From assembly GCA_965228735.1 (NCBI GenBank), contig OZ245838.1:3264001-3328000 (forward strand): 64,000 nucleotides of DNA, in the 5' to 3' direction. The notes below the pieces were generated by a model that worked only from the letters and a program-made list of their open reading frames with translations, was not told the origin of the DNA and did not search any database. The stretch comes from Planctomycetota bacterium. Its GTDB lineage: Bacteria > Planctomycetota > UBA1135 > UBA2386. This document shows, one piece after another, positions 47,955 through 63,098 of this stretch (positions within the stretch are counted from its first letter, which is position 1; each line of letters begins with the position of its first letter). The translations under genes were made by a program, and so were the position numbers.

Positions 47955-48431
47955 CTACTTCTTCTCGCGCTCGGACCCACTCTTCTTCGCGGGCTTCTTC
48001 GCGCGCTCGGGCTTGCTCGAGCCCTTCTTGGCGGGACGCTCCTTCGGCTGCCGGGGCTGCTTCTTCTGGCCCTTCTTCTGGGCCTTCTCGCGCAGCTGCT
48101 CGACGAGCTTGTTCGCGGCGGCCTCGTCGATCGAGGCCTTCACGACCTTGAGCTTCTTGGCCTTCGGAGCGGGCAGCGTGCCTTTCTCCTTGCGGGCCTT
48201 GCGCGCCTTGACCTCGGCCTTGTGCGCTTCGACGGCGTCCTTGTGCTCCTGCTTGAGCTCGGCCTTCAGCCCGGCGACTTCATCGGCCTTCACGACGCGG
48301 TACTCGTCGTCGATCTGAACGACGGCGTGCGGGATCGGCTTGCTCTCGGGCTCCTGCGCCATGGCGGGTTGCGCCAGGGTCGCGACGGCCAGAAGGAGGG
48401 AGACAGGAACGAGGGAGACTTTGATGTTCAT
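47955..48431 (-). CDS. Secreted lysine-rich small protein
   Basis: MNIKVSLVPVSLLLAVATLAQPAMA signal; very K-rich mature part. Confidence 0.8.
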   Translation of the reverse strand: MNIKVSLVPVSLLLAVATLAQPAMAQEPESKPIPHAVVQIDDEYRVVKADEVAGLKAELKQEHKDAVEAHKAEVKARKARKEKGTLPAPKAKKLKVVKASIDEAAANKLVEQLREKAQKKGQKKQPRQPKERPAKKGSSKPERAKKPAKKSGSEREKK

Positions 48432-48474
48432 TGGAATGGGCGCCCGGCGATCTCGAGGGCGGTCGCGCCGAGAG

Positions 48475-48490
48475 AGCAACAGCCGTGCCA
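48475..48490 (-). promoter_or_regulatory. Sigma54 -24/-12 promoter
   Basis: Minus strand TGGCAC-GGCTG-TTGCT upstream of the ATG at 48431. Confidence 0.85.
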
Positions 48491-48654
48491 CGGCGAATTC
48501 GGCCGCGGCGGGCCGCCGACCGGGCCTACCGCCACCCAACCGGACGACGGACCACTCACGGCACACCCGATCGGGTGTCCCGCCTCCGATTCCGAATCGC
48601 CGGCGGACACCGCCGCTGACCCGCCAGGCGCCGCGCGCTACCGTGCGGTCGCCC

Positions 48655-50097
<1,443 letters not shown>

Positions 50098-50691: not shown

Positions 50692-51888
50692 TCAGTCGCC
50701 GGGAACGACCGCAGCGCTCGGCCCGGGCCAGCTCCAGGCGATCACGTTCGTGAGGCATCGAACGGTTCCGCCGCTCGGCGCGATCGCCGCGACATCGATC
50801 GGCAGCACCGCGACCCCGACCTCCCGGAAGGCCCGAGCCGCCACCTCGTCGAGCTCCGGCAACCCGTAGGCCGGCATGTAGGCCCGGCGCCCGTCGGCCC
50901 GGCGCTCGATCACGGCGTTGTTCCAGGTCAGCACGTTGCCGTCTTCGCCGTGCACGATCGGCAGCCGCCGCACGGTCAGGCCCTGGCGTTCGAGCTCGTT
51001 GAGCACGCACTCGTAGCGCGCCAGCAGACCCGAGTGCAGCGCCACCTGCGTCCACGCGTCGAAGTCCGGCACGTTGTCGGCCGGCTCCCGCCCCAGCAGC
51101 TCGAGGCCCAGAACCGGGTCGCCGAGCAACACGGTCCGTTCATCGACGACGGTCATGAACATGTCGAGGTGCTCGTGCGGCGGCGCGGGGCGGCCGACGA
51201 CGACCAGCGGACAACCGAACATGCGCGCGAACGCCGCCTCGATGTCGTCGGTCATTCCGTTCTCCAGATTGTCGGTGACCGTCTTCCAACCGATGAACGC
51301 GTGCGTGCCGTTGCACGCGACATCGCCGCCCTCGAACGAGTAGCCGGTCGGAAAGCAACGCGCGCTGGGCGCGGCCGACGCGTGTGCCCCCGCGAGATCG
51401 CCGAGGTACTCGGGGTCGACCCGATCGATCCTCGGCGTGAGGAACGCGGACCGGTCGCCGTCACGAATCGCCACGTACCGATCCCGAGCCCACGACGTCA
51501 CGGGGCGCCCGACGACGAGCGTGCACGGTCGGTCTCGGATCGCCGGCGCTTCGAGAGCCAACGCACGCGCGAGGTGGTCGGCCTCGGCCTGGCCGTGGAC
51601 CGCGATGGAGACCCGCACCGCGGGCGGCAGCGACCGCAGCAGGTCACGGCAGGTCGGCAACCATTCCGCCATCGCGTCCGGGTCGTAGTGCAGCACGATG
51701 TGGTCGATCGCGGCGCAGCCTTCCGGGAACGGCGTCGGCGGCAGCTGGGCCGACGCCCGCGCTACCGTCACCGATGGTCGGTGCGGCAACGCCTGGAACG
51801 ACTGTGCTGCCAGCGGCACCCCGCAGGCCGCCGACGAGAGCACGGTGACAAGCCAGCGGAACCCGCCGTCCCTCATGGATCGTTTCAT
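50692..51888 (-). CDS. Secreted pentein-fold amidinohydrolase (agmatine or peptidyl-arginine deiminase-like)
   Basis: WARD, FEGGD, HEHLDMF, GGTVRCLT with catalytic Cys; signal-like N-terminus. Confidence 0.8.
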   Translation of the reverse strand: MKRSMRDGGFRWLVTVLSSAACGVPLAAQSFQALPHRPSVTVARASAQLPPTPFPEGCAAIDHIVLHYDPDAMAEWLPTCRDLLRSLPPAVRVSIAVHGQAEADHLARALALEAPAIRDRPCTLVVGRPVTSWARDRYVAIRDGDRSAFLTPRIDRVDPEYLGDLAGAHASAAPSARCFPTGYSFEGGDVACNGTHAFIGWKTVTDNLENGMTDDIEAAFARMFGCPLVVVGRPAPPHEHLDMFMTVVDERTVLLGDPVLGLELLGREPADNVPDFDAWTQVALHSGLLARYECVLNELERQGLTVRRLPIVHGEDGNVLTWNNAVIERRADGRRAYMPAYGLPELDEVAARAFREVGVAVLPIDVAAIAPSGGTVRCLTNVIAWSWPGPSAAVVPGD

Positions 51889-51900
51889 CGGCGTTGCACT

Positions 51901-51916
51901 AGCAACGCGCATGCCA
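51901..51916 (-). promoter_or_regulatory. Sigma54 -24/-12 promoter
   Basis: Minus strand TGGCAT-GCGCG-TTGCT, 12 nt upstream of the ATG at 51888. Confidence 0.8.
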
Positions 51917-53564: not shown

Positions 53565-53646
53565 CGGAGCGCGGCCCGTGGCCGAATTCGGGAGCCTCGC
53601 GTCAGGACTCGCCGCGATGACGACGCCCTGGACGACGGGATCCCCG

Positions 53647-54198
53647 ATGGCGTGGCAGGACGTCGACGACGAAACGTTGCTGGATCGGGCTGCCCGCGGC
53701 GAGGACGCCGCCGTCGACGCGTTCGTCGACCGCTTCGGTGACCGCCTCTGCAGTTTCCTCGTTCGTCTCGTGCGCGATCGCGCATGGGCCGACGACCTCG
53801 TGCAGGAGGTGCTCGTGCGCGCGCTCCACGAGGCCCACCGCTACGATCCCGAGTGGCCCGTCGTCGTGTGGCTGTTCGGCATCGCCCGCCACCTCGGCCT
53901 CGACCTGCTGCGTCGTGAAGGGGGCCAGCGGCGGCGCGCGAGCAACCTGACCCGCCCCGAACCCGCACCCGCCGCGGTGACGACCGCCGAGCATCGCGAG
54001 TTCCAGATCGCGCTCGAAGCGGCGCTGCAGCAGCTGCCCGAGGAGTATCGCTCGGTGTTCCTGCTGCGCGACGGCGAGAGTCTGAGCTACGAGGCGATCG
54101 GCGAGGTTCTCGGCATCTCACCCAAGACCGTTTCCAGTCGGCTGCACCGCGCGCGCCGCGCGCTGCGCACCGCCCTGCAGGAGCACCTGCCCAGATGA
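53647..54198 (+). CDS. ECF sigma factor
   Basis: DDETLL, ADDLVQEV, WLFGIARH, LPEEYRSVFLL, SYEAI, TVSSRLHRAR; start uncertain. Confidence 0.92.
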   Translation: MAWQDVDDETLLDRAARGEDAAVDAFVDRFGDRLCSFLVRLVRDRAWADDLVQEVLVRALHEAHRYDPEWPVVVWLFGIARHLGLDLLRREGGQRRRASNLTRPEPAPAAVTTAEHREFQIALEAALQQLPEEYRSVFLLRDGESLSYEAIGEVLGISPKTVSSRLHRARRALRTALQEHLPR

Positions 54199-54222
54199 CG
54201 AGTACCGGATGACGAGGACCCG

Positions 54223-55452
54223 ATGACGAGAACTGGCGACTCATCGCGCTCCGACCGCGAGTGCGCCCGCGTGCAGCGCCGCGTGACCGCGTTCGTCGAC
54301 GGCCGGCTCGACGCCCGCGAACGCGCCGCGACCCAGCAGCACCTGCGGGGCTGCGCGCGCTGCATGCAGGAGGCCCGCGACCTCACGCGGCTCGCGCGCG
54401 CCACGCACAACCTGCCGCCCCACCGGGCCGAATCCGGCCTCGCCGACCGGGTGCGGCGCGGCCTGGCCGATCGTCGCTCACGCGGCCTCGCCGACCTCGA
54501 CACCCGCGCGAGCGCCCGCCACGGACGTTCGTGGCAGCGCGTCTTCCGGGCCCCGGGCCTGCGCGCCGCAGCGGCGGGCATCGCGATCGCGCTCGTCTGG
54601 GGTGCGGGCTTCGTCGCGGGCCGCAGCGTCGAATGGCTGACCGGCGCGACCGGCGAATCGGCCGGACCGGCGGGGGTCACGACCTCGGGGATCGAGCAAC
54701 GCCGCGTCACCGAAACCGTGCCCGCGATCCTCGTCGACCCGGAGTTCGTCACGACGGGCCGCGAAGTCCTCGCGGATCTCGCGTGGGCCGAGTGTCTGCC
54801 ACCGTCCGCGCGCCGCCCGATGCTCGCGAGTCAGTTCGCGCTGTTCGAACTGCGGGAGCGCGCCGAGGCCGTGCTCGAACGAGCTCCGACGACGGACCCG
54901 ACGCGATCGCTCGCGCAACTCGTCCACGACTTCGGCACGACGCTCGCTGGCCCCGGAGCGATCGACTGGCGGGCCTGGAGCAGCGCCGCGCGCGCAGTGC
55001 AACTCGCGTTGCCGACCCGCTCCCACATCGCGGCGCGTCCCATCGTCGGCCCGCCGGGAATCGAAGCGCGCCCTCGCCGCGCTCTCGAACCGACGATCAC
55101 CCACGCGCTCGCGAACTGCGGCGCCGAACTCTCACAGCACGAGCGCCGCGACCTCGCCGAACTGCTTCGCTTCAAGCAGCAACTGGTCCACGACACGATG
55201 ACGGGCGGCCCGACCGCCGCAGCGTCGCGGACGACGACGTTCTTGAGCCACTGGCAGAGTTCGACGACGAGCGGCGGCGGTCACGACGGAACGCACATCA
55301 CGACCTCGTTCCGCCTCGCGACGGGAGTGCGCGCAGCGCGCACGCTGCACGACGCCGGCCACGGCAACGCCCCCGAGCTCGCGCGGCTGATCGAACGGAT
55401 GGCCCGCGACCTCGGTCTCGACCCGGCGGTCGACCTGCCGCTCGGCCAGTAG
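54223..55452 (+). CDS. Zinc-binding (ZAS/zf-HC2) membrane anti-sigma factor
   Basis: HLRGCARC (HxxxCxxC), one TM segment, directly after the ECF gene. Confidence 0.85.
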   Translation: MTRTGDSSRSDRECARVQRRVTAFVDGRLDARERAATQQHLRGCARCMQEARDLTRLARATHNLPPHRAESGLADRVRRGLADRRSRGLADLDTRASARHGRSWQRVFRAPGLRAAAAGIAIALVWGAGFVAGRSVEWLTGATGESAGPAGVTTSGIEQRRVTETVPAILVDPEFVTTGREVLADLAWAECLPPSARRPMLASQFALFELRERAEAVLERAPTTDPTRSLAQLVHDFGTTLAGPGAIDWRAWSSAARAVQLALPTRSHIAARPIVGPPGIEARPRRALEPTITHALANCGAELSQHERRDLAELLRFKQQLVHDTMTGGPTAAASRTTTFLSHWQSSTTSGGGHDGTHITTSFRLATGVRAARTLHDAGHGNAPELARLIERMARDLGLDPAVDLPLGQ

Positions 55453-55471: not shown

Positions 55472-57154
55472 TCAGCGACGTTCGCCGGCGACGAGATCCC
55501 ACCGGTCGCCGGGACTCAGCCAGACGGGTTCGGGCGCGCCGCCGTTGTCCGCGGCGCTCGCCTCGAGGAAACGGCCGCAGAGTCGGCGCCAATCGTAGAT
55601 CGCGATCTTCGACGCGCCGATGACCTCGAGCTCGTGCCCCGCGACGACGGCCGCGGTGCCTTCGTCGACGCCGATCCCGATGAGCTGCGGGTGGGTCTCG
55701 ATGAGGCCGGCGAGGTCACGCATCCGGTTCCGCGCGAGGAAGTGCTGATCCACCGCGCAGCCCGGCAGGAACGCGAAGCCGCGGTCGTAGCCCTCGCACG
55801 CCATGTCGCGATTGCCGAGCGGATTTCCCCGCACGAGGAAATCACCCTGAATCGTCGCGCCGGCGCTGCTGCCACCGATCACCCCGCCGCGCTCGAGCAC
55901 GGCGCGAAAGGCCGGCATCGCGAGGGTATCGGCAAACGCGTCGACGAGCCGCCACTGCCGACCGCCGCCGAACCACACGCCCGTCGCGTCGGCGAGAACA
56001 GTGAGGCGCTCGGGCGTCACTTCGTCGGGGTGCGCACAATCGAGGACCGCGACCTCGGCACCGCGCTTCTCGAACGCACCGCGCAGGTAGAGCCGCCGGT
56101 CACGCGAGCCGCCGCGGCCGCCGCGGGGCGCGGGACTCGCGCTCGGCACGAGCACGATCTTGCCATCAGCGCCGCCGGCGAGCGCGACGAAGCGGTCGAT
56201 CACGGCGGCCGGCAAGCGGCCGCCGCCGGCGAGCATGACGGCACCCGACGGCACGCGCGGCGCTGCCATCGTCGCCGGCGGCCACGCAGCGCCGACGCGC
56301 GCCGCGGCGGCGCGCTGCCAGCTCACGAGGTCCGCGCGTTCACCGGCACTCAACCGCACGATCTTCTCTTCGTGGCCCGCGCCGGCCGGCAACACGAGCG
56401 TCACGTCCGAGGCGCCGAGCACGCGCATCGCGCGCCCCTGCACGACGAGTGCAGTGCCCTCGTCGACGCCGAACCCGAACGCCCCGCGCGTCTGGGCGAG
56501 CGCTCGCCGCAGCCGCGGCAGGCGCTCCCGCGCGCGGAAGTGCTGATCGCCGATCGCGCCAGGGACGAGGTCGAGGCCCTGACCGAGCACCGGCTCGGGG
56601 TTGCCCGACTGGATCATCGTGCGGGTCTGGATCGCCAGGCCAGCCGAGCTGCCGCCGACGACACCGCCGCGGTCGAGCAACGCCATGACCTCGCGTTCGA
56701 AGCGGGTGCCGACGTAGGCCTCGGCGAGCCGGCGCTGCTGCCCGCCACCGAACCAGACCGCGGTCGCGCGGCGGAGCGGAGCGCAGAACTCCTCGTCGTT
56801 CGCGCGCTCGCGATCGCGGGTATGGAGCACGACGAACTCGGCATCGGGCCGACTCTCACGCCACTGGGCGACGAGCCGCGCCTGCGAACTCTCGGAGTCG
56901 GCGCGCGAGCTCGCCGTCGGCACGAGAACCACGACCGCCTCGTCCCCGCCCGCGAGCGCGAAGAACCGCTCGTAGATCGCAGCCGGCAACCGGCCGCCAC
57001 CCGCCAGAATGCGCGCACCCGGCACGCCGGCGGGATCGATCGCGCGAGCCGCACACGTCGGATCGGCGCGCGGCGTGGATGACTGGGCAACGGCAGTCGC
57101 GCTCGCGAACGCAAGACCGAGGCAGGCGACGAGGACGGGCAGGCAACACCTCAC
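55472..57154 (-). CDS. Secreted tandem two-domain cyanophycinase (peptidase S51)
   Basis: Two copies of AGGG / VP[TS]AS / WFGGGxQ / GGSSAG / DQHF / GVDEGTA; signal peptide. Confidence 0.9.
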   Translation of the reverse strand: MRCCLPVLVACLGLAFASATAVAQSSTPRADPTCAARAIDPAGVPGARILAGGGRLPAAIYERFFALAGGDEAVVVLVPTASSRADSESSQARLVAQWRESRPDAEFVVLHTRDRERANDEEFCAPLRRATAVWFGGGQQRRLAEAYVGTRFEREVMALLDRGGVVGGSSAGLAIQTRTMIQSGNPEPVLGQGLDLVPGAIGDQHFRARERLPRLRRALAQTRGAFGFGVDEGTALVVQGRAMRVLGASDVTLVLPAGAGHEEKIVRLSAGERADLVSWQRAAAARVGAAWPPATMAAPRVPSGAVMLAGGGRLPAAVIDRFVALAGGADGKIVLVPSASPAPRGGRGGSRDRRLYLRGAFEKRGAEVAVLDCAHPDEVTPERLTVLADATGVWFGGGRQWRLVDAFADTLAMPAFRAVLERGGVIGGSSAGATIQGDFLVRGNPLGNRDMACEGYDRGFAFLPGCAVDQHFLARNRMRDLAGLIETHPQLIGIGVDEGTAAVVAGHELEVIGASKIAIYDWRRLCGRFLEASAADNGGAPEPVWLSPGDRWDLVAGERR

Positions 57155-57449: not shown

Positions 57450-57465
57450 CGGCACGGACCTTGCG
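57450..57465 (+). promoter_or_regulatory. Sigma54 -24/-12 promoter
   Basis: CGGCAC-GGACC-TTGCG, about 50 nt upstream of the P-II ATG. Confidence 0.65.
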
Positions 57466-57516
57466 ACTCCGGCCTTGCGACTCCGGCGCCCAACCTCGTC
57501 GACGACCGCCGCCCCA

Positions 57517-57873
57517 ATGAAGAAGATCGAAGCCTACGTCAAGCCGTTCCGGCTCGCGGAGATCCGCGACAGGCTCGCAGAACGGCGATTCGACGTCCTG
57601 CGGGTCCACCGCGCCGAAGAAGTGCGCCCCGCGGAAACGTACACGGAGACGGTGCAGGGCGTCGCCTACGAGGTCGACTCGACTCCTCGCGCATTGATCG
57701 TGTTGCTCGTCGAAGAGAAGGACCTCGAGGAAGCCATCCGCCTCATCCAGAGCGTGGGCAAGACCGACCACGCCGGGGACGGTCGCATCGTCGTCACTCA
57801 CGTCGACCTCATCGCCGCGATCAACCCGGACGAGAATCCGGACTCCGAGATCCCGGGACGGCATGTCAACTGA
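57517..57873 (+). CDS. Divergent P-II family protein
   Basis: MKKIEAYVKPFRL, YEVD, KTDHAGDGRIVV. Confidence 0.88.
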   Translation: MKKIEAYVKPFRLAEIRDRLAERRFDVLRVHRAEEVRPAETYTETVQGVAYEVDSTPRALIVLLVEEKDLEEAIRLIQSVGKTDHAGDGRIVVTHVDLIAAINPDENPDSEIPGRHVN

Positions 57874-58402
57874 CGGCCAGTACGTGCTCACCGCCCTCGG
57901 AGCGGCAATGGCCCTGCTGTCGAGCGACGCACGTCCCCAGGGGCAAGGCAACGCCATCGGGACCGTGACCATCGCGGCGCCCGTGTTGGCAGGTCCTGCG
58001 CACGCATCGGCTGACGGCCAGTTCAGCCTGCGCTGGCAGGTCTCGCTCGACGACGTCGAGGATGCGGTCGCAGCCGCAGTCGAGTTCGAACTCGAAGAGC
58101 GCGCCGGCGACGCACGGACGCTGCTCGCCGCCGGCCATCATCTGGCGGCAGCGCTCAGCGGTCGCGACGACGGCGACTACGACTATCGCGTCAGAGCCGT
58201 GCAGACCGGCCACGCGATCAGCCCGTGGAGCGAGCCCGTCACGGTGCAGGTGCGGCATCACCCTCTGGGCTTCGCGCTGCGAATGTTCGCGGTCGGCGCG
58301 GTCGTATTCCTCGCGACTGCCGCGCTCGTGCTCGTCGGGCATCGGCGCGCCCGCCCGAGCGCCCATGCGACCGCCGCCGGCGACGCCGCGACCTCCGCCT
58401 GA
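57863..58402 (+). CDS. Membrane protein with an FN3-like domain
   Basis: FSLRW...FELEE...DGDYDYRVRA...SPWSEPVTV followed by a C-terminal TM helix. Confidence 0.78.
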   Translation: MSTDGQYVLTALGAAMALLSSDARPQGQGNAIGTVTIAAPVLAGPAHASADGQFSLRWQVSLDDVEDAVAAAVEFELEERAGDARTLLAAGHHLAAALSGRDDGDYDYRVRAVQTGHAISPWSEPVTVQVRHHPLGFALRMFAVGAVVFLATAALVLVGHRRARPSAHATAAGDAATSA

Positions 58403-58414
58403 CCTCGAAGCGCC

Positions 58415-59833
58415 ATGAACATCCAGTTCCTCGACCCATGGGTCGCCGGTGGGTTGCTTGCTGCCTTCAGCATTCTGTGGGTGTTCCTCGGCTGGTACTG
58501 GGGGCGCAAGAACAGCGACGTCGACGACTTCATGCTGGCTGGCCGCAAGGTCGGGCTCGCGCTCGGCAGCGCGACGGCGATGGCCACGTGGGTGACCAGC
58601 AACACGACTCTCGTCGCGCCCGAGCTCGCGTTCAACTTCGGCATCTGGGGCATGCTCGGCTACTCGCTCGGATGCGTGGGCCTGCTGCTGTTCGCGCCGA
58701 TGGCGTCCCGCATCAGGCACCTCATGCCCCGCGGATACACGAGCGGCGACTTCGTGCGGCTGCGGTATGGCCGGGCGGCGTGGCGGGTCTTCCTGCTGAT
58801 CTCCGTCGCCTACAGCGGCGCCTGGCTCGTCAGCCTCGGTTCCGCCGGCGGCCTGCTGATCCAGGCGCTCAGCGGCATTCCGTTCCTCGTCGGCGCGACG
58901 GTGATCCTGGTGATCTGCGTGCTCTACACGCTGCTCGGCGGCCTGCGGGCCGTGATCGGCACCGACTTCATCCAGACCATCGTGATCATCTCGGGTGTCG
59001 TACTGGTCGGCGTGATGACGCTGCAGCAGGTCGACCTGCAACAGGTTCATGCCCGCCTCAGCGATGTCCGCCCGCGCCTGCTCGACGCGCTCATGCCGGC
59101 GGCGGTGATGTTCCTCTTCAACAACCTGCTCTTCGGCATCGGTGAGATCTTTCACTCGAACGTCTGGTGGAGCCGCGCGTTCGCGTTCGACCGGGGCGTC
59201 GGGTTCAAGGCCTACCTGACCGCCGGTCTGCTCTGGGCGCCGATCCCGATCGCCGCCGGCTTCATCGCGCTCTCGGCGCCGGCCCTCGATCTCGCCGTGC
59301 CGCGCGCCGACATGGTCGGGCCGCTCGTGGCCGCGAACGTGCTCGGGGTGGGCGGCGCCGTTCTGCTGTTCATCGTGGTCTTCTCGGCGATCGCGTCGAG
59401 CCTCGACTCGCTCCTCGCAGCGACGAGCGACCTCGTCGTCGAAGACATCTACCGGCGCCACCTGCGCCCGAACGCGACTCCCACTCAGCTGCGCCGGGCC
59501 GCGTCGACCACCATCGTCGCGCTCGGCGTGCTGACCTGGGTCATCGTCGCGCTCGACATCTCGACCCTGGCCAAGCTGCTCAACTTCGCCGGTGCGCTCG
59601 TCGCGAGCACGATCTGGCCGATCGCGGCCGGCCTCTACTGGCGTCGAACGAACCCGCTGTCAGCGACGCTGGGGATGGCCCTCGGATCGATCGGCGGCCT
59701 GCTCGCCTACTTCCTCATCGACTGGTACGTCGCGGCCCTGGTCGGCGCCGCGATCTCCATGACGATCGTGCTCGCCCTCACGTTCGTGCGGCCGAGTGAC
59801 TTCGACTGGCGTCGACTGGGAGCCGGATCATGA
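58415..59833 (+). CDS. Sodium:solute symporter (SSS; PutP/DUR3-like)
   Basis: DFMLAGR, YTLLGGLRAVIGTDFIQ, SAIASSLDS; about 13 hydrophobic segments. Confidence 0.93.
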   Translation: MNIQFLDPWVAGGLLAAFSILWVFLGWYWGRKNSDVDDFMLAGRKVGLALGSATAMATWVTSNTTLVAPELAFNFGIWGMLGYSLGCVGLLLFAPMASRIRHLMPRGYTSGDFVRLRYGRAAWRVFLLISVAYSGAWLVSLGSAGGLLIQALSGIPFLVGATVILVICVLYTLLGGLRAVIGTDFIQTIVIISGVVLVGVMTLQQVDLQQVHARLSDVRPRLLDALMPAAVMFLFNNLLFGIGEIFHSNVWWSRAFAFDRGVGFKAYLTAGLLWAPIPIAAGFIALSAPALDLAVPRADMVGPLVAANVLGVGGAVLLFIVVFSAIASSLDSLLAATSDLVVEDIYRRHLRPNATPTQLRRAASTTIVALGVLTWVIVALDISTLAKLLNFAGALVASTIWPIAAGLYWRRTNPLSATLGMALGSIGGLLAYFLIDWYVAALVGAAISMTIVLALTFVRPSDFDWRRLGAGS

Positions 59834-59952
59834 CCGTTCCGCCGTTCGTCCTCGAAGCGTTGGTCTACGCCGCGCTGACCGTGAGCGCGGCCGCGCCGAT
59901 CGTGCTCCTCGCCCTGCTGTTTCGAGACTGGAAGAGAGGCAACCTGTGGTAG
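59830..59952 (+). CDS. 40-aa membrane peptide
   Basis: MTVPPFVLEALVYAALTVSAAAPIVLLALLFRDWKRGNLW*; ATGA overlap with the SSS stop and overlap with the next GTG start; absent from the ORF track. Confidence 0.78.
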   Translation: MTVPPFVLEALVYAALTVSAAAPIVLLALLFRDWKRGNLW

Positions 59953-61034
59953 CCACACCGACCCTGCATCCTCGCCTGCAAGGCCCGATCGACGTGCGCA
60001 GCCCGCACGTCGGACTCGAGCACCCGCGCCGACTGCTCGCGACGGTTCCCGAGAACCCGAGCGCCCTGCTCGCGCTCGCGACCCGTCACATCGTCTCGGC
60101 CCTGCAGTTCGACCGTGAACTCGTGACCCAGCTCTGCCGGCTCGCGGCGAGCATCGAGATGCAGCCGAAGCTGCTCCACCTGCCGCTCACGGGCAAGATC
60201 CTGATCACCGCGTTCCTCGAGCCGAGCACGCGGACGCGGCTGTCGTTCGAGAGTGCGTGGCACCGACTCGGCGGCGACATCCTGTCCATCACCGAGGCGG
60301 CAACGACGGGGATCGCGAAGGGCGAGAGCCTCCGCGACATCGCCGAGATGTTCAGCAACTACGGCGACGCGGTCGTGCTCCGTGACAACAACGAGCACTC
60401 GGTCTACGAGATGCTCGACACGCTGCGGGTTCCGATCATCAACGCCGGCAACGGCATCGACGAGCACCCGACGCAGGCACTGTCCGACATCTACGCGATC
60501 GTGAAGTGGCGCCCGCAGCTCCTGACGGACGAGCCGGGCGACCGACTGCGGATCGGCATCATCGGCAACCCGGCGAAGATGCGGACGGTTCGCAGTTTGC
60601 TGCTCCTGCTGAGCCTCTTCCCGCACGCGATCGACGAAGTCGTGGTCGTCAGCGGCGCCGGCACGGCGGATCCGTTCGATCCCGGCCAGCGCGAACTGCT
60701 CGAGGAACGCGGTCTCCGCCTCAGGGTCGAACGACAGCTCCAACACGTTCTGCAGACCCTCGATGTCGTCTACATCAACTCGATCGCGTGGATCGGCGAC
60801 ACGTTCGAGCGCCTGACGGGCGATCTCCGGCTGACCGCCGGTTCGGCCGTCAAGGACGGCGCGATCATCCTCCATCCGCTCGCCCGCGGCGCGGAGCTCG
60901 ACGTCAGCCTCGATGACACCGAGCACAACTGGTACTTCAGCCAGGCCCGCGGCGCGACCTTCCTCCGCATGGCGCTGCTCACCTGCATGGTCGAGCGCGT
61001 GCATCGCGTCGCCGACGTCGAACCCCCGGCGTAG
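59946..61034 (+). CDS. Aspartate carbamoyltransferase-like protein with altered acceptor site
   Basis: FLEPSTRTRLSF, KGES, LR, NAGNG, EHPTQ, RTVRSL, HPLAR; start (GTG 59946) uncertain. Confidence 0.9.
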   Translation: MVATPTLHPRLQGPIDVRSPHVGLEHPRRLLATVPENPSALLALATRHIVSALQFDRELVTQLCRLAASIEMQPKLLHLPLTGKILITAFLEPSTRTRLSFESAWHRLGGDILSITEAATTGIAKGESLRDIAEMFSNYGDAVVLRDNNEHSVYEMLDTLRVPIINAGNGIDEHPTQALSDIYAIVKWRPQLLTDEPGDRLRIGIIGNPAKMRTVRSLLLLLSLFPHAIDEVVVVSGAGTADPFDPGQRELLEERGLRLRVERQLQHVLQTLDVVYINSIAWIGDTFERLTGDLRLTAGSAVKDGAIILHPLARGAELDVSLDDTEHNWYFSQARGATFLRMALLTCMVERVHRVADVEPPA

Positions 61035-61061
61035 CGATCAGCCCAGGACACGACCGAACTC

Positions 61062-63098
61062 ATGTGTGGCATAGCCGGCATCTTCCATCTCGACCGCAAT
61101 CGCCCCGTCGACCCCGCCCTGCTCGCGGGAATGGCGGCGATCCAGCACCACCGCGGGCCCGACGGCTGTGGGCACCACGTCATCGACGATCGGGGCGTGG
61201 GGTTCGCCCACGCCCGGCTGGCGATCATCGATCTCGAAAACTCTGGACAGCAGCCCCTGGTCGCCGGAGGGCAACGCTGGATGCTCACGCACAACGGCGA
61301 GTTCTACGACTACGCCCGGATCCGGGCCGACCTCGCGACCCGCGGCGCCAGGTTCACGACGAAGAGCGACTCCGAGATCGTGCTCCACCTGGCCGAACGC
61401 CGCGGGCTGGAGGGCGCCCTGCCGCACCTGCGCGGCGAGTTCGCGTTCGGGCTCTACGACCGTGAACGGGACGAGCTCACGCTCGTGCGCGACCGCTTCG
61501 GCGTCAAGCCGCTCTACTGGACGCGAACGAGCAACGGCATCGTATTCGGGTCGGAGATCAAGGTGCTCTTCGCGCATCCCGACGTCCGACGGGAGTTCGA
61601 CGACGAAGGTCTGTTCCACCAGTTGATGCAGACCATCGTGCCCGGGTCGACCCCGTTCGCGGGAGTCCACCAGGTCAAGCCGGGACACGCGCTCACGGTC
61701 CGCCGCCAGAACGGCGATCTGCTGATCGAGGACCGCCGCTACTGGGACATGCCGTTCCCCGAGTGGAACGACCGCGGTCCGGACCGCCCGGAACAGGACG
61801 TCATCGAGGAGGTCCGAGCGCGCTTGCTCGAGGCGGTGCAGCTGCGGCTCGTCGCCGACGTGCCGGTCGGATGCTATCTCTCCGGCGGCATCGACTCGTG
61901 CTCGATGCTCGGGCTCGCGGCCGCATGCCGTCAGGACGCGGTCAAGGCGTTCACGATCGGCTTCGACAACAAGGACTACGACGAGACCGAGATCGCGCGG
62001 GAGATGGCTCGGTCGGTCGGTGCGGACCAGGACGTGCTCGCGCTGGACGCTGGCCATCTCTACGACCACTTCGTCGAGACCCACTGGCACACGGAGCGAA
62101 CGATCTACAACACGCTCGGTGTGGCCAAGCTGCTCATGAGCCGGCATGTCCACCGGGCCGGTTACAAGGTCGTGATCACCGGCGAAGGCTCCGACGAACT
62201 CTTCGCCGGCTATCCGTCCTTCCGGAACGACCTGTTCGCGCACGGCCTCGCGCATCTGCCGGCACCCGAACGGGAGGCGATGCAGGAGGCGCTGGGCCGG
62301 TCCAACGCCGTCTTCCGCGGCGCGATGCTGCCCGTCGAGACGCATGACGACCCGGATCTCGAGAGGGTGTGCGGCTTCACCCCGACCTGCCTGCAGCCGT
62401 GGCTCAATGCCTCGCGCCACGTCGCGCCGCTGATCGATGGCGACCGACGGGCGCGGCTGGCGGGCTACAGTCCGGGCGCAGCGATCGCGAACGCCCTGGA
62501 CGAGAGCGCGATGCGCGGCCGTCATCCGCTCGACGTCGCGCAGTACGTCTGGATCAAGACGATGCTCGAAGGCCAGATCCTGACCTGGGGCGGTGACCGC
62601 GTCGACATGGCCAACTCGATGGAGGCACGTCCCGCGTTCCTCGATCACCACCTGGCGGAGTTCGCCGCGACGATCCCGCCGCAGTATCGGATCCGCGGGA
62701 TCACCGAGAAGTGGGTCCTGCGTGAAGCCATGAAGGGCGTGCTGCCGCGCGTGCTCTACGAACGGGAGAAGTTCGCGTTCATGGCACCACCGGCGCACAC
62801 CGACCCCGCGAAGCGCAAGGCGCTCGGCGCCCTGACGAGCCGATACCTGAACTCAGGGTCCATCCGCCACTCCAACCTGCTCGACGAAGGCGGCGTCCGG
62901 GACGTGCTCGACCGCTACGCCGACGACAGCCGACCGCGCGATGAGCTCGTGCAGCTCGATGCCGTCGTCAACCACCTGCTCGGAGTCCAGATCCTGCACG
63001 ACCAGCTCGTCGATCAGGACGTGCCCGCGCTCGCAGCAGCGCGAGCGGACGAGCTCGGCGACGGGGTCGTCGCCGTGGCCGAGCCTGTCGCGCGTTAA
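61062..63098 (+). CDS. asnB: Asparagine synthase-like glutamine-dependent amidotransferase
   Basis: MCGIAG (Ntn Cys), HRGPD, NGE, RDRFGVKPLY, LSGGIDS, GEGSDE. Confidence 0.93.
   Translation: MCGIAGIFHLDRNRPVDPALLAGMAAIQHHRGPDGCGHHVIDDRGVGFAHARLAIIDLENSGQQPLVAGGQRWMLTHNGEFYDYARIRADLATRGARFTTKSDSEIVLHLAERRGLEGALPHLRGEFAFGLYDRERDELTLVRDRFGVKPLYWTRTSNGIVFGSEIKVLFAHPDVRREFDDEGLFHQLMQTIVPGSTPFAGVHQVKPGHALTVRRQNGDLLIEDRRYWDMPFPEWNDRGPDRPEQDVIEEVRARLLEAVQLRLVADVPVGCYLSGGIDSCSMLGLAAACRQDAVKAFTIGFDNKDYDETEIAREMARSVGADQDVLALDAGHLYDHFVETHWHTERTIYNTLGVAKLLMSRHVHRAGYKVVITGEGSDELFAGYPSFRNDLFAHGLAHLPAPEREAMQEALGRSNAVFRGAMLPVETHDDPDLERVCGFTPTCLQPWLNASRHVAPLIDGDRRARLAGYSPGAAIANALDESAMRGRHPLDVAQYVWIKTMLEGQILTWGGDRVDMANSMEARPAFLDHHLAEFAATIPPQYRIRGITEKWVLREAMKGVLPRVLYEREKFAFMAPPAHTDPAKRKALGALTSRYLNSGSIRHSNLLDEGGVRDVLDRYADDSRPRDELVQLDAVVNHLLGVQILHDQLVDQDVPALAAARADELGDGVVAVAEPVAR

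Follow-up and report, generated by a model that had tools for sequence, protein, structure and literature searches.

A conserved carbamoyltransferase and AsnB-like gene pair in a planctomycete: a candidate pathway for N-carbamoyl-L-glutamine 1-amide

What do a gene resembling that for aspartate carbamoyltransferase (ATCase) and a gene resembling asparagine synthetase B do side by side in one block with a symporter gene? The question is raised by a 64,000-nucleotide stretch of a Planctomycetota bacterium (assembly GCA_965228735.1, contig OZ245838.1, positions 3,264,001 to 3,328,000 of the forward strand), to which we refer as the window. Near its end lie six genes for, in order, a P-II-like protein, an Ig/FN3-like membrane protein, a sodium:solute symporter (SSS), a 40-aa peptide, an ATCase-like carbamoyltransferase or pseudo-ATCase (59946-61034, with a GTG start) and an AsnB-like glutamine amidotransferase (61062-63098, 678 aa). 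The original prediction had described them as co-directional and tightly packed, and so they are, all on the + strand with junctions of -11, +12, -4, -7 and +27 nt. It had also proposed that the carbamoyltransferase and AsnB make an N-carbamoyl amino-acid amide such as the osmolyte N-carbamoyl-L-glutamine 1-amide (NCGA), under nitrogen control. The genomic tests of linkage, of a separate pyrB gene and of presence in a producer strain were all passed by the core of that proposal, but the nitrogen control is unsupported.

The block is real and conserved, and is without a functional assignment in the literature searched. We favour, with moderate confidence, the view that the six genes make and transport NCGA, and have good confidence in the broader claim that the pathway makes some N-carbamoyl amino-acid 1-amide. 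Glutamine would first be carbamoylated on its alpha-amine by the carbamoyltransferase, with carbamoyl phosphate as donor, and the AsnB-type enzyme would then convert the alpha-carboxylate to the amide at the expense of ATP and a second glutamine, giving NCGA. The symporter, which is of the DUR3 type, would with its peptide and FN3-like partners serve for uptake or reuptake of the ureido product. Breakdown would in most carriers be by an amidase together with an M20 carbamoylase, and in the lineage of our host by one altered M20 enzyme that would attack the amide itself. Instead of a main osmolyte, the product may be a solute of lesser importance or a store of nitrogen.

The carbamoyltransferase has a predicted structure (pLDDT 84) with the ATCase fold (Z 36.5, rmsd 2.0 over 301 residues), and the carbamoyl-phosphate motifs STRT, K84, R105 and HPxQ are all present, positions being given in what we take to be the residue numbering of Escherichia coli ATCase. 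Its score with the ATCase model TIGR00670 is 180, below the cut-off of 237. Among the best 120 of 2855 carbamoyltransferase matches, S52-T55, K84, R105, H134, Q137 and R167 are kept in all 120 and R229, Q231 and P268 in none; in the window enzyme R229 and Q231 are replaced by S and A, giving SIA instead of RxQ, and HPLA is found instead of HP[LG]P. The residues that are kept are those that in ATCase make the site for carbamoyl phosphate and for an alpha-amino acid whose alpha-carboxylate is free. As R229 and Q231 are lost and R167 is kept, the acceptor should be an alpha-amino acid other than aspartate, one with no beta-carboxylate. The residue mapping was by alignment with 1ml4 and from Table 1 of Barba 2013 (PMC4016543), and the counts were drawn from the 120 homologs and not from our genome scan, because the scan patterns themselves contain YIN[SA]IAW.

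In a tree of 26 family members with five PyrB and ArgF sequences the family splits off at 99.8/100, and its closest homologs are named from Planctomycetota metagenome-assembled genomes. The canonical pyrB that the original prediction had expected elsewhere in the genome is indeed outside the window, at C1:2704025-2705365, and the host also has argF and an AOTCase-like gene (all named by motif); each of the six genomes checked likewise has its own pyrB. The window enzyme thus has the fold, the carbamoyl-phosphate site and R167 in common with PyrB, but differs in R229, Q231 and P268, in falling in a separate clade and in coexisting with a true pyrB, and we do not regard it as a true ATCase, given the loss of the aspartate side-chain ligands, the separate clade and the separate pyrB. 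It is predicted to be an alpha-amino-acid N-carbamoyltransferase, for which glutamine is our best guess as acceptor. With regard to the other pyrimidine genes, carB was said to be missing from the window and was found at C1:3749947, while no TIGR00857-type pyrC was found in the genome at E<=1e-30, the other PyrC type and pyrI being outside that search. The true PyrB of the host (G000:C1:2704025-2705365, - strand) carries a Cys-rich C-terminal extension that by eye resembles the PyrI zinc domain.

The AsnB-like protein passes the general model TIGR01536 (424 against a cut-off of 267 bits) and also matches NF033535, but it is below cut-off for the E. coli-type asparagine synthetase B model PRK09431 (248 against 499 bits). 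The N-terminal Cys, NG, SGGxDS, EGxDE, DR and the catalytic Lys, covering glutaminase and synthetase functions, are invariant in 65 of 65 AsnB partners. It belongs to a subfamily specific to this cluster, the motifs for glutaminase activity and for adenylation being intact, and we predict that it amidates the alpha-carboxylate of the N-carbamoyl amino acid.

The genes of the two enzymes form a fixed pair. The genome scan matched at least 471 relatives at the level of species genomes, many of marine Synechococcus included, and this is a lower bound because a distant subclade lacks the scan pattern. We kept 80 loci, of which 55 with full flanks were used for synteny (25 had short flanks and were left out) and 16 were left out of the paired trees. 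The conserved linkage looked for by the original prediction is plain, as AsnB is adjacent to the carbamoyltransferase in 54 of the 55 fully flanked loci, and in the exception, Thiorhodospira, an AsnB of the same subfamily (64%) is found elsewhere in the genome. Other neighbours in the 55 loci are the M20 carbamoylase (47), the SSS (44), an isochorismatase-family amidase (34), MarR (19) and P-II (12). In the picocyanobacterial family to which Synechococcus locus L073 belongs both genes are present in the same 45 of 201 genomes and neither in the other 156. For 65 sequences the distances in the two enzyme trees are correlated (0.80), a value reached in 0 of 500 permutations, though kin among these are not independent. 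The family is patchy in the order of the host, being in 6 of 301 genomes. Carbamate kinase (TIGR00746) was above cut-off in none of five carrier genomes, and the pair therefore reads as biosynthetic; phosphorolysis coupled to carbamate kinase was rejected on this count, which also sets the present family apart from the catabolic pseudo-ATCase UGTCase. One picocyanobacterial genome has two carbamoyltransferase-AsnB pairs (G501:C1:1680763-1683836 and 2533793-2536867), and two loci titled Bifidobacteriales or Bifidobacterium (L015 and L043) carry the cluster and are probably mislabelled bins.

The case for NCGA in particular comes from the producer strain. NCGA was described in 1991, and Ectothiorhodospira marismortui is named as its producer, the only one known, in reviews that call it a minor solute (PMC1224877, PMC3857566; parts available). 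The part of PMC7824335 available to us gives E. mobilis DSM 4180 as the type strain of E. marismortui. This strain is our locus L013, with a carbamoyltransferase 63% and an AsnB 65% identical to those of the window, in the order MarR-M20-amidase-carbamoyltransferase-AsnB, flanked by sucrose synthase and PfkB kinase genes. Its draft genome has three genes of the ATCase and ornithine carbamoyltransferase type only, argF, pyrB and the cluster gene, so that the last is its only spare, and no CmcH/NodU-type carbamoyltransferase was found in that draft. The SSS, peptide and FN3-like genes are absent from the cluster of the producer, and are therefore accessory to synthesis. The original prediction knew of no genes assigned to NCGA, and we found no assignment in the literature searched, subscription journals and theses being outside its coverage. 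The Ectothiorhodospira-type cluster is back to back with sucrose synthase in 10 of the 80 loci (L013:3879-6263 and nine others), often beside the PfkB kinase gene.

A second, independent handle on the amide position comes from the hydrolases, a breakdown arm that the original prediction overlooked. The M20 carbamoylase (47 of 55 loci) and the amidase (34 of 55), which is nearest to cysteine hydrolases of the biuret and N-carbamoylsarcosine type, would match the reverse of both proposed steps. In our host an altered M20 gene (G000:C1:3328594-3329961, equal to L084:2095-3462, + strand) starts 1.5 kb after the AsnB stop and 0.6 kb past the window end, has its own sigma54-like motif TGGCACGGGGCTTGC and is the only hydantase-family M20 gene in the genome. 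The protein is above cut-off for TIGR01879 (231 against 204 bits) and shares its Zn ligands, its catalytic Glu and the His of the dimer domain with L-N-carbamoylases and beta-alanine synthase, but the Asn and Arg of carbamoylases are replaced in it by Thr and Met. Judged by alignment and by their spacing of 13 residues, these positions appear to equal Asn309 and Arg322 of beta-alanine synthase, which anchor the substrate carboxylate according to the part of PMC12169670 available.

The change is fixed in the clade concerned. Thr and Met are found in 71 of 71 close M20 homologs while Arg is kept in 48 of the 49 next, and the Thr/Met clade, with 99% bootstrap, comes from an M20 lineage other than that of the usual cluster hydrolase. 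Of 59 cluster M20s 56 keep Arg, and Asn and Arg are both kept in 43 of the 43 accompanied by an amidase. Within the order of the host the Thr/Met form is in 5 of 301 genomes, all five among the six carriers, and the sixth carrier has an ordinary M20 with the amidase. It lies directly after AsnB in G788 and G768, metagenome locus L158 has the full P-II-FN3-SSS-peptide-carbamoyltransferase-AsnB-M20 operon, and a Myxococcota carrier also has the Thr/Met M20. Close metagenome M20 loci touch cluster genes in 3 of 5 cases, L158 among them, and distant M20 loci have the enzyme pair in 0 of 75. No isochorismatase-family gene was seen in four of the five Thr/Met genomes, the genomes being 73-93% complete; the other, G578, has two, neither matching the cluster amidase. 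The simplest reading is of a compound without a free alpha-carboxylate, from which most hosts would first remove the 1-amide, the M20 of our host lineage taking the amide itself. The altered gene takes the place of the usual pair of carbamoylase and amidase, as an alpha-amide substrate would lead one to expect, and this speaks for a 1-amide of the NCGA type without recourse to the producer strain. The altered M20 next to the cluster is a new element in the present analysis and is likely a seventh, catabolic member of the system. It does not hold in general that an M20 without Arg goes with each cluster lacking the amidase; the rule is confined to the Thr/Met clade. In the genome of locus L040 there is a stop-containing piece of the cluster amidase, 60% identical (G591:C21:211424-211675).

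The transport genes have also to be considered. The SSS (58415-59833, 472 aa) matches PF00474 and is below cut-off for TIGR00813 (138 against 184); among relatives of solved structure the DUR3 urea transporter is the nearest, at E 2e-35, with the next family at 9e-12, and the SSS likely carries a ureido compound. The peptide (59830-59952) is a conserved single-helix membrane peptide of no known family, in which M1, P23, D33 and W40 are invariant, and a homolog of 39-44 aa directly follows the SSS gene in 35 of 36 loci examined; it is likely a small transporter subunit. The FN3-like protein (57863-58402, 179 aa) has one C-terminal membrane helix. For the label FN3 given in the original prediction there was no Pfam fn3 match in any of eight members, but there are weak profile matches (E about 1e-3) to single FN3 domains in the PDB. 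The protein co-occurs with the SSS and is likely an accessory subunit of the transporter. SSS, peptide and FN3-like genes are together in 43 of the 55 loci and all absent in 9. In L043 FN3-like and peptide genes are present as remnants only, with no SSS.

The proposed chemistry follows the logic of the pathway for the osmolyte N-acetylglutaminylglutamine amide (NAGGN), in which, with Ngg and AsnO, the alpha-amine of glutamine is capped and the alpha-carboxylate is then amidated by an AsnB-type enzyme to give an uncharged solute. The difference is that here a carbamoyl cap would be added by an ATCase-fold enzyme in place of acetylation and dipeptide ligation. The window block is not itself a NAGGN cluster: its AsnB scores 284 against a cut-off of 570 bits with the NAGGN AsnO equivalog TIGR03104, the producer has a separate true AsnO, and a profile search with an Ngg-type model gave no match in any of the six genes.

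The family has been described before, a status that the original prediction overlooked. The window enzyme belongs to pseudo-ATCase subgroup 3 of Barba 2013 (PMC4016543), to which the available part of that paper gives no function. Their subgroup likewise has genes for a Na+ symporter, an AsnB-like protein and an N-carbamoyl hydrolase as neighbours, and includes Kangiella and Synechococcus members, but the "asparaginase" of the paper is an AsnB-type synthetase, and the peptide, FN3-like protein, amidase and anchor-less M20 go unmentioned in the part available. The motifs HPLA and SIA/AIA stand there in the Table 1 row for pseudo-ATCase 1, in conflict with the text, and as the Kangiella and Synechococcus loci have these motifs, the rows for pseudo-ATCase 1 and 3 are apparently swapped. 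The asnB-pyrB2-pydC cluster of marine picocyanobacteria of Doré 2023 (PMC10119275, bioRxiv 10.1101/2022.08.17.504260) consists of the same three genes with matching phyletic patterns, but is read, in the part available, as a possible alternative pyrimidine pathway, against which the lost aspartate ligands argue. Neither NCGA nor a tested function was met in the parts of the Barba and Doré texts available to us.

There are several points against NCGA as the product. Only the producer link singles out glutamine, as the pocket itself says just "not aspartate", and the producer is hardly set apart from its kin by having the genes, since 49 of the 55 genomes in its taxonomic family have the carbamoyltransferase while NCGA is reported from one species. 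The producer also has five strong AsnB-family matches, one of them an AsnO of NAGGN type (985 bits), as a possible source of the amidation. Rhodopirellula baltica carries the family (Barba, PMC4016543), yet 800-MHz NMR of that species across salinity and nitrogen conditions names, in the available part of PMC3694870, only glutamate, sucrose, trehalose and mannosylglucosylglycerate. Its gene RB13301 is absent from the stress-regulated lists in the part of PMC2754498 supplement 1 available; the salinity-up sheet of that source does list RB13300 and RB13294, which could not be mapped. Among picocyanobacteria, carriage of the cluster is associated with N-depleted water (Doré, PMC10119275, part available), which is awkward for an osmolyte with four nitrogens. 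As for the hydrolases, the Synechococcus M20 keeps Asn and Arg although the query used found no amidase there, 13 M20s without an amidase beside them still have Arg, though His has replaced Asn, a cluster gene is absent at two of the five close metagenome M20 loci, and the Thr/Met change is one evolutionary event. Some of this would be met by the same chemistry with another product, the N-carbamoyl 1-amide of Asn, of Glu (by double amidation) or of a neutral residue, or a product that varies with subclade. The distant planctomycete subclade has MRA for MRT and Phe, Leu or Tyr for Trp in the pocket, and the best named profile for the M20 of the producer is N-carbamyl-glutamate hydrolase (391, below the cut-off of 520). 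However, the window motifs YINSIAW, MRT and HPLAR match those of the producer (which has YINAIAW), NCGA is the one natural compound of the type met in the literature searched, and we consider another product of this kind unlikely, though worth bearing in mind.

A product with a free alpha-carboxylate or a ring seems to us improbable. In that case AsnB would amidate the side chain of N-carbamoyl-Glu or -Asp, or close a ring to a hydantoin or dihydropyrimidine, and it is true that the Arg anchor is present in most cluster M20s, that the query used did not find the amidase in some carriers and that there are cyclases among AsnB relatives, as the NF033535 match recalls. However, the intact glutaminase domain favours amide formation, no cyclic amidohydrolase was recognised by eye among the recurring neighbours, and the anchor-less M20 clade fits an alpha-amide. 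We likewise give little credence to nitrogen scavenging or to the alternative pyrimidine route of Doré, with the symporter importing urea or ureido compounds, the hydrolases freeing ammonia and the carbamoyltransferase running in reverse. The N-depleted niches, the DUR3-like symporter, the type of cysteine hydrolase to which the amidase is nearest and the catabolic role of the related UGTCase (PMC4016543, part available) would suit this, but the constant partner of the carbamoyltransferase is the ATP-consuming AsnB, with symporter and hydrolases lost in some loci; the carbamate kinase result and the missing aspartate ligands also count against it. Even so, there may be hosts in which the accessory genes serve mainly for uptake and breakdown. 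Lastly the database names, the ATCase fold and the TIGR01536 match would suggest a spare housekeeping set of a second ATCase, an asparagine synthetase and an unrelated transporter, and in two carrier genomes the cluster AsnB is the only strong AsnB. This is highly improbable, and a second ATCase or plain asparagine synthetase was rejected, given the RxQ motif lost in 120 of 120, the sub-cut-off scores for both enzymes and the 156 of 201 picocyanobacterial relatives with neither gene.

If the NCGA pathway is as we suggest, genes can now be proposed for the compound, and the orphan family of pseudo-ATCase subgroup 3 and pyrB2-asnB-pydC would have a function. Many annotations as "aspartate carbamoyltransferase" and "asparagine synthase" would have to be corrected, the transcarbamylase family would gain a new acceptor, and metabolomics could be directed to a four-nitrogen compound. 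It is a good deal more tentative, and at present we would call it doubtful, that NCGA, far from being confined to one species, is a widespread nitrogen-rich metabolite of saline bacteria. On that view its synthesis would depend on a carbamoyltransferase activity not described before, its exchange on a DUR3-like transporter of three parts, and its breakdown in the lineage of our host on a new M20 activity by which the carbamoyl group is taken straight off an amino-acid amide.

There remains the regulation, for which the original prediction had looked to P-II and a sigma54 promoter. The P-II-like protein (57517-57873, 118 aa) is the only P-II found in the host genome. It is above cut-off for PF00543 (29.1 bits against 25), but reaches only 48 of 202 and 42 of 181 with the GlnB and GlnK equivalogs. 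It keeps Tyr51 and GDG, in the GlnB numbering that we apply to it, and lacks Gly35, Gly37, Gln39, Lys58, Arg101 and Arg103, presumably the residues for binding of ATP and 2-oxoglutarate. In homologous clusters P-II is canonical, degenerate or absent. A -24/-12-like motif, CGGCACGGACCTTGC, is present as had been noted, at 57450-57464 (+ strand), 52 nt upstream of the P-II ATG, and has the GG-N10-GC spacing at promoter distance, but its first position is C and not T and it is not conserved. The host has two rpoN genes; genome-wide, the C/T motif pattern is not enriched (31 seen against about 35 expected) and the T form is (16 against about 7). Of 67 other loci 1 has the motif, against 6 of 2422 background windows, and it was not found upstream of the L158 operon. 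No sigma70 promoter or terminator was found on the + strand. The sigma54 motif is plausible at this block and is not a conserved feature of the system. With P-II degenerate and in few loci, and the motif unconserved, there is no support for nitrogen control, and we have rejected the two as evidence for it, both being local add-ons.

The P-II genes at the cluster head form a series from canonical (L029, L049, L077) to degenerate (L004, L005, L009, L015, L017, L021, L026, L028, L045, L063), and most of the degenerate ones keep the T-loop Tyr. An exact 14-nt tandem duplication, CCTTGCGACTCCGG, is at 57459-57486 and overlaps the -12 box. Two of the 16 T-form motifs are upstream of small heat-shock-like ORFs (by eye). 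A sigma54 activator gene is in the window at 48424-50097 (+) and a second, recognised by eye, at C1:3334855-3336342. The window has three further GGCAC-N5-TTGC motifs, at 48489 (-), 50121 (+) and 63594 (-), two of them before Usp-like genes (one by eye).

Divergent from the operon, at 55472-57154 (-), is a gene for a cyanophycinase-like S51 protein (TIGR02069, 233 against 127 bits) that has two domains and apparently a signal peptide, and a homolog of which is absent from related loci; neither this gene nor Usp is a conserved neighbour. Further upstream are a gene at 50692-51912 (-), single-copy in the genome, with a weak match to the peptidyl-arginine deiminase/amidinotransferase fold (PF04371, 19.2 bits, below cut-off), and, at 53578-55452 (+), an extracytoplasmic function (ECF) sigma factor gene followed by an anti-sigma-like gene (by eye). 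The host genome also encodes NqrA.

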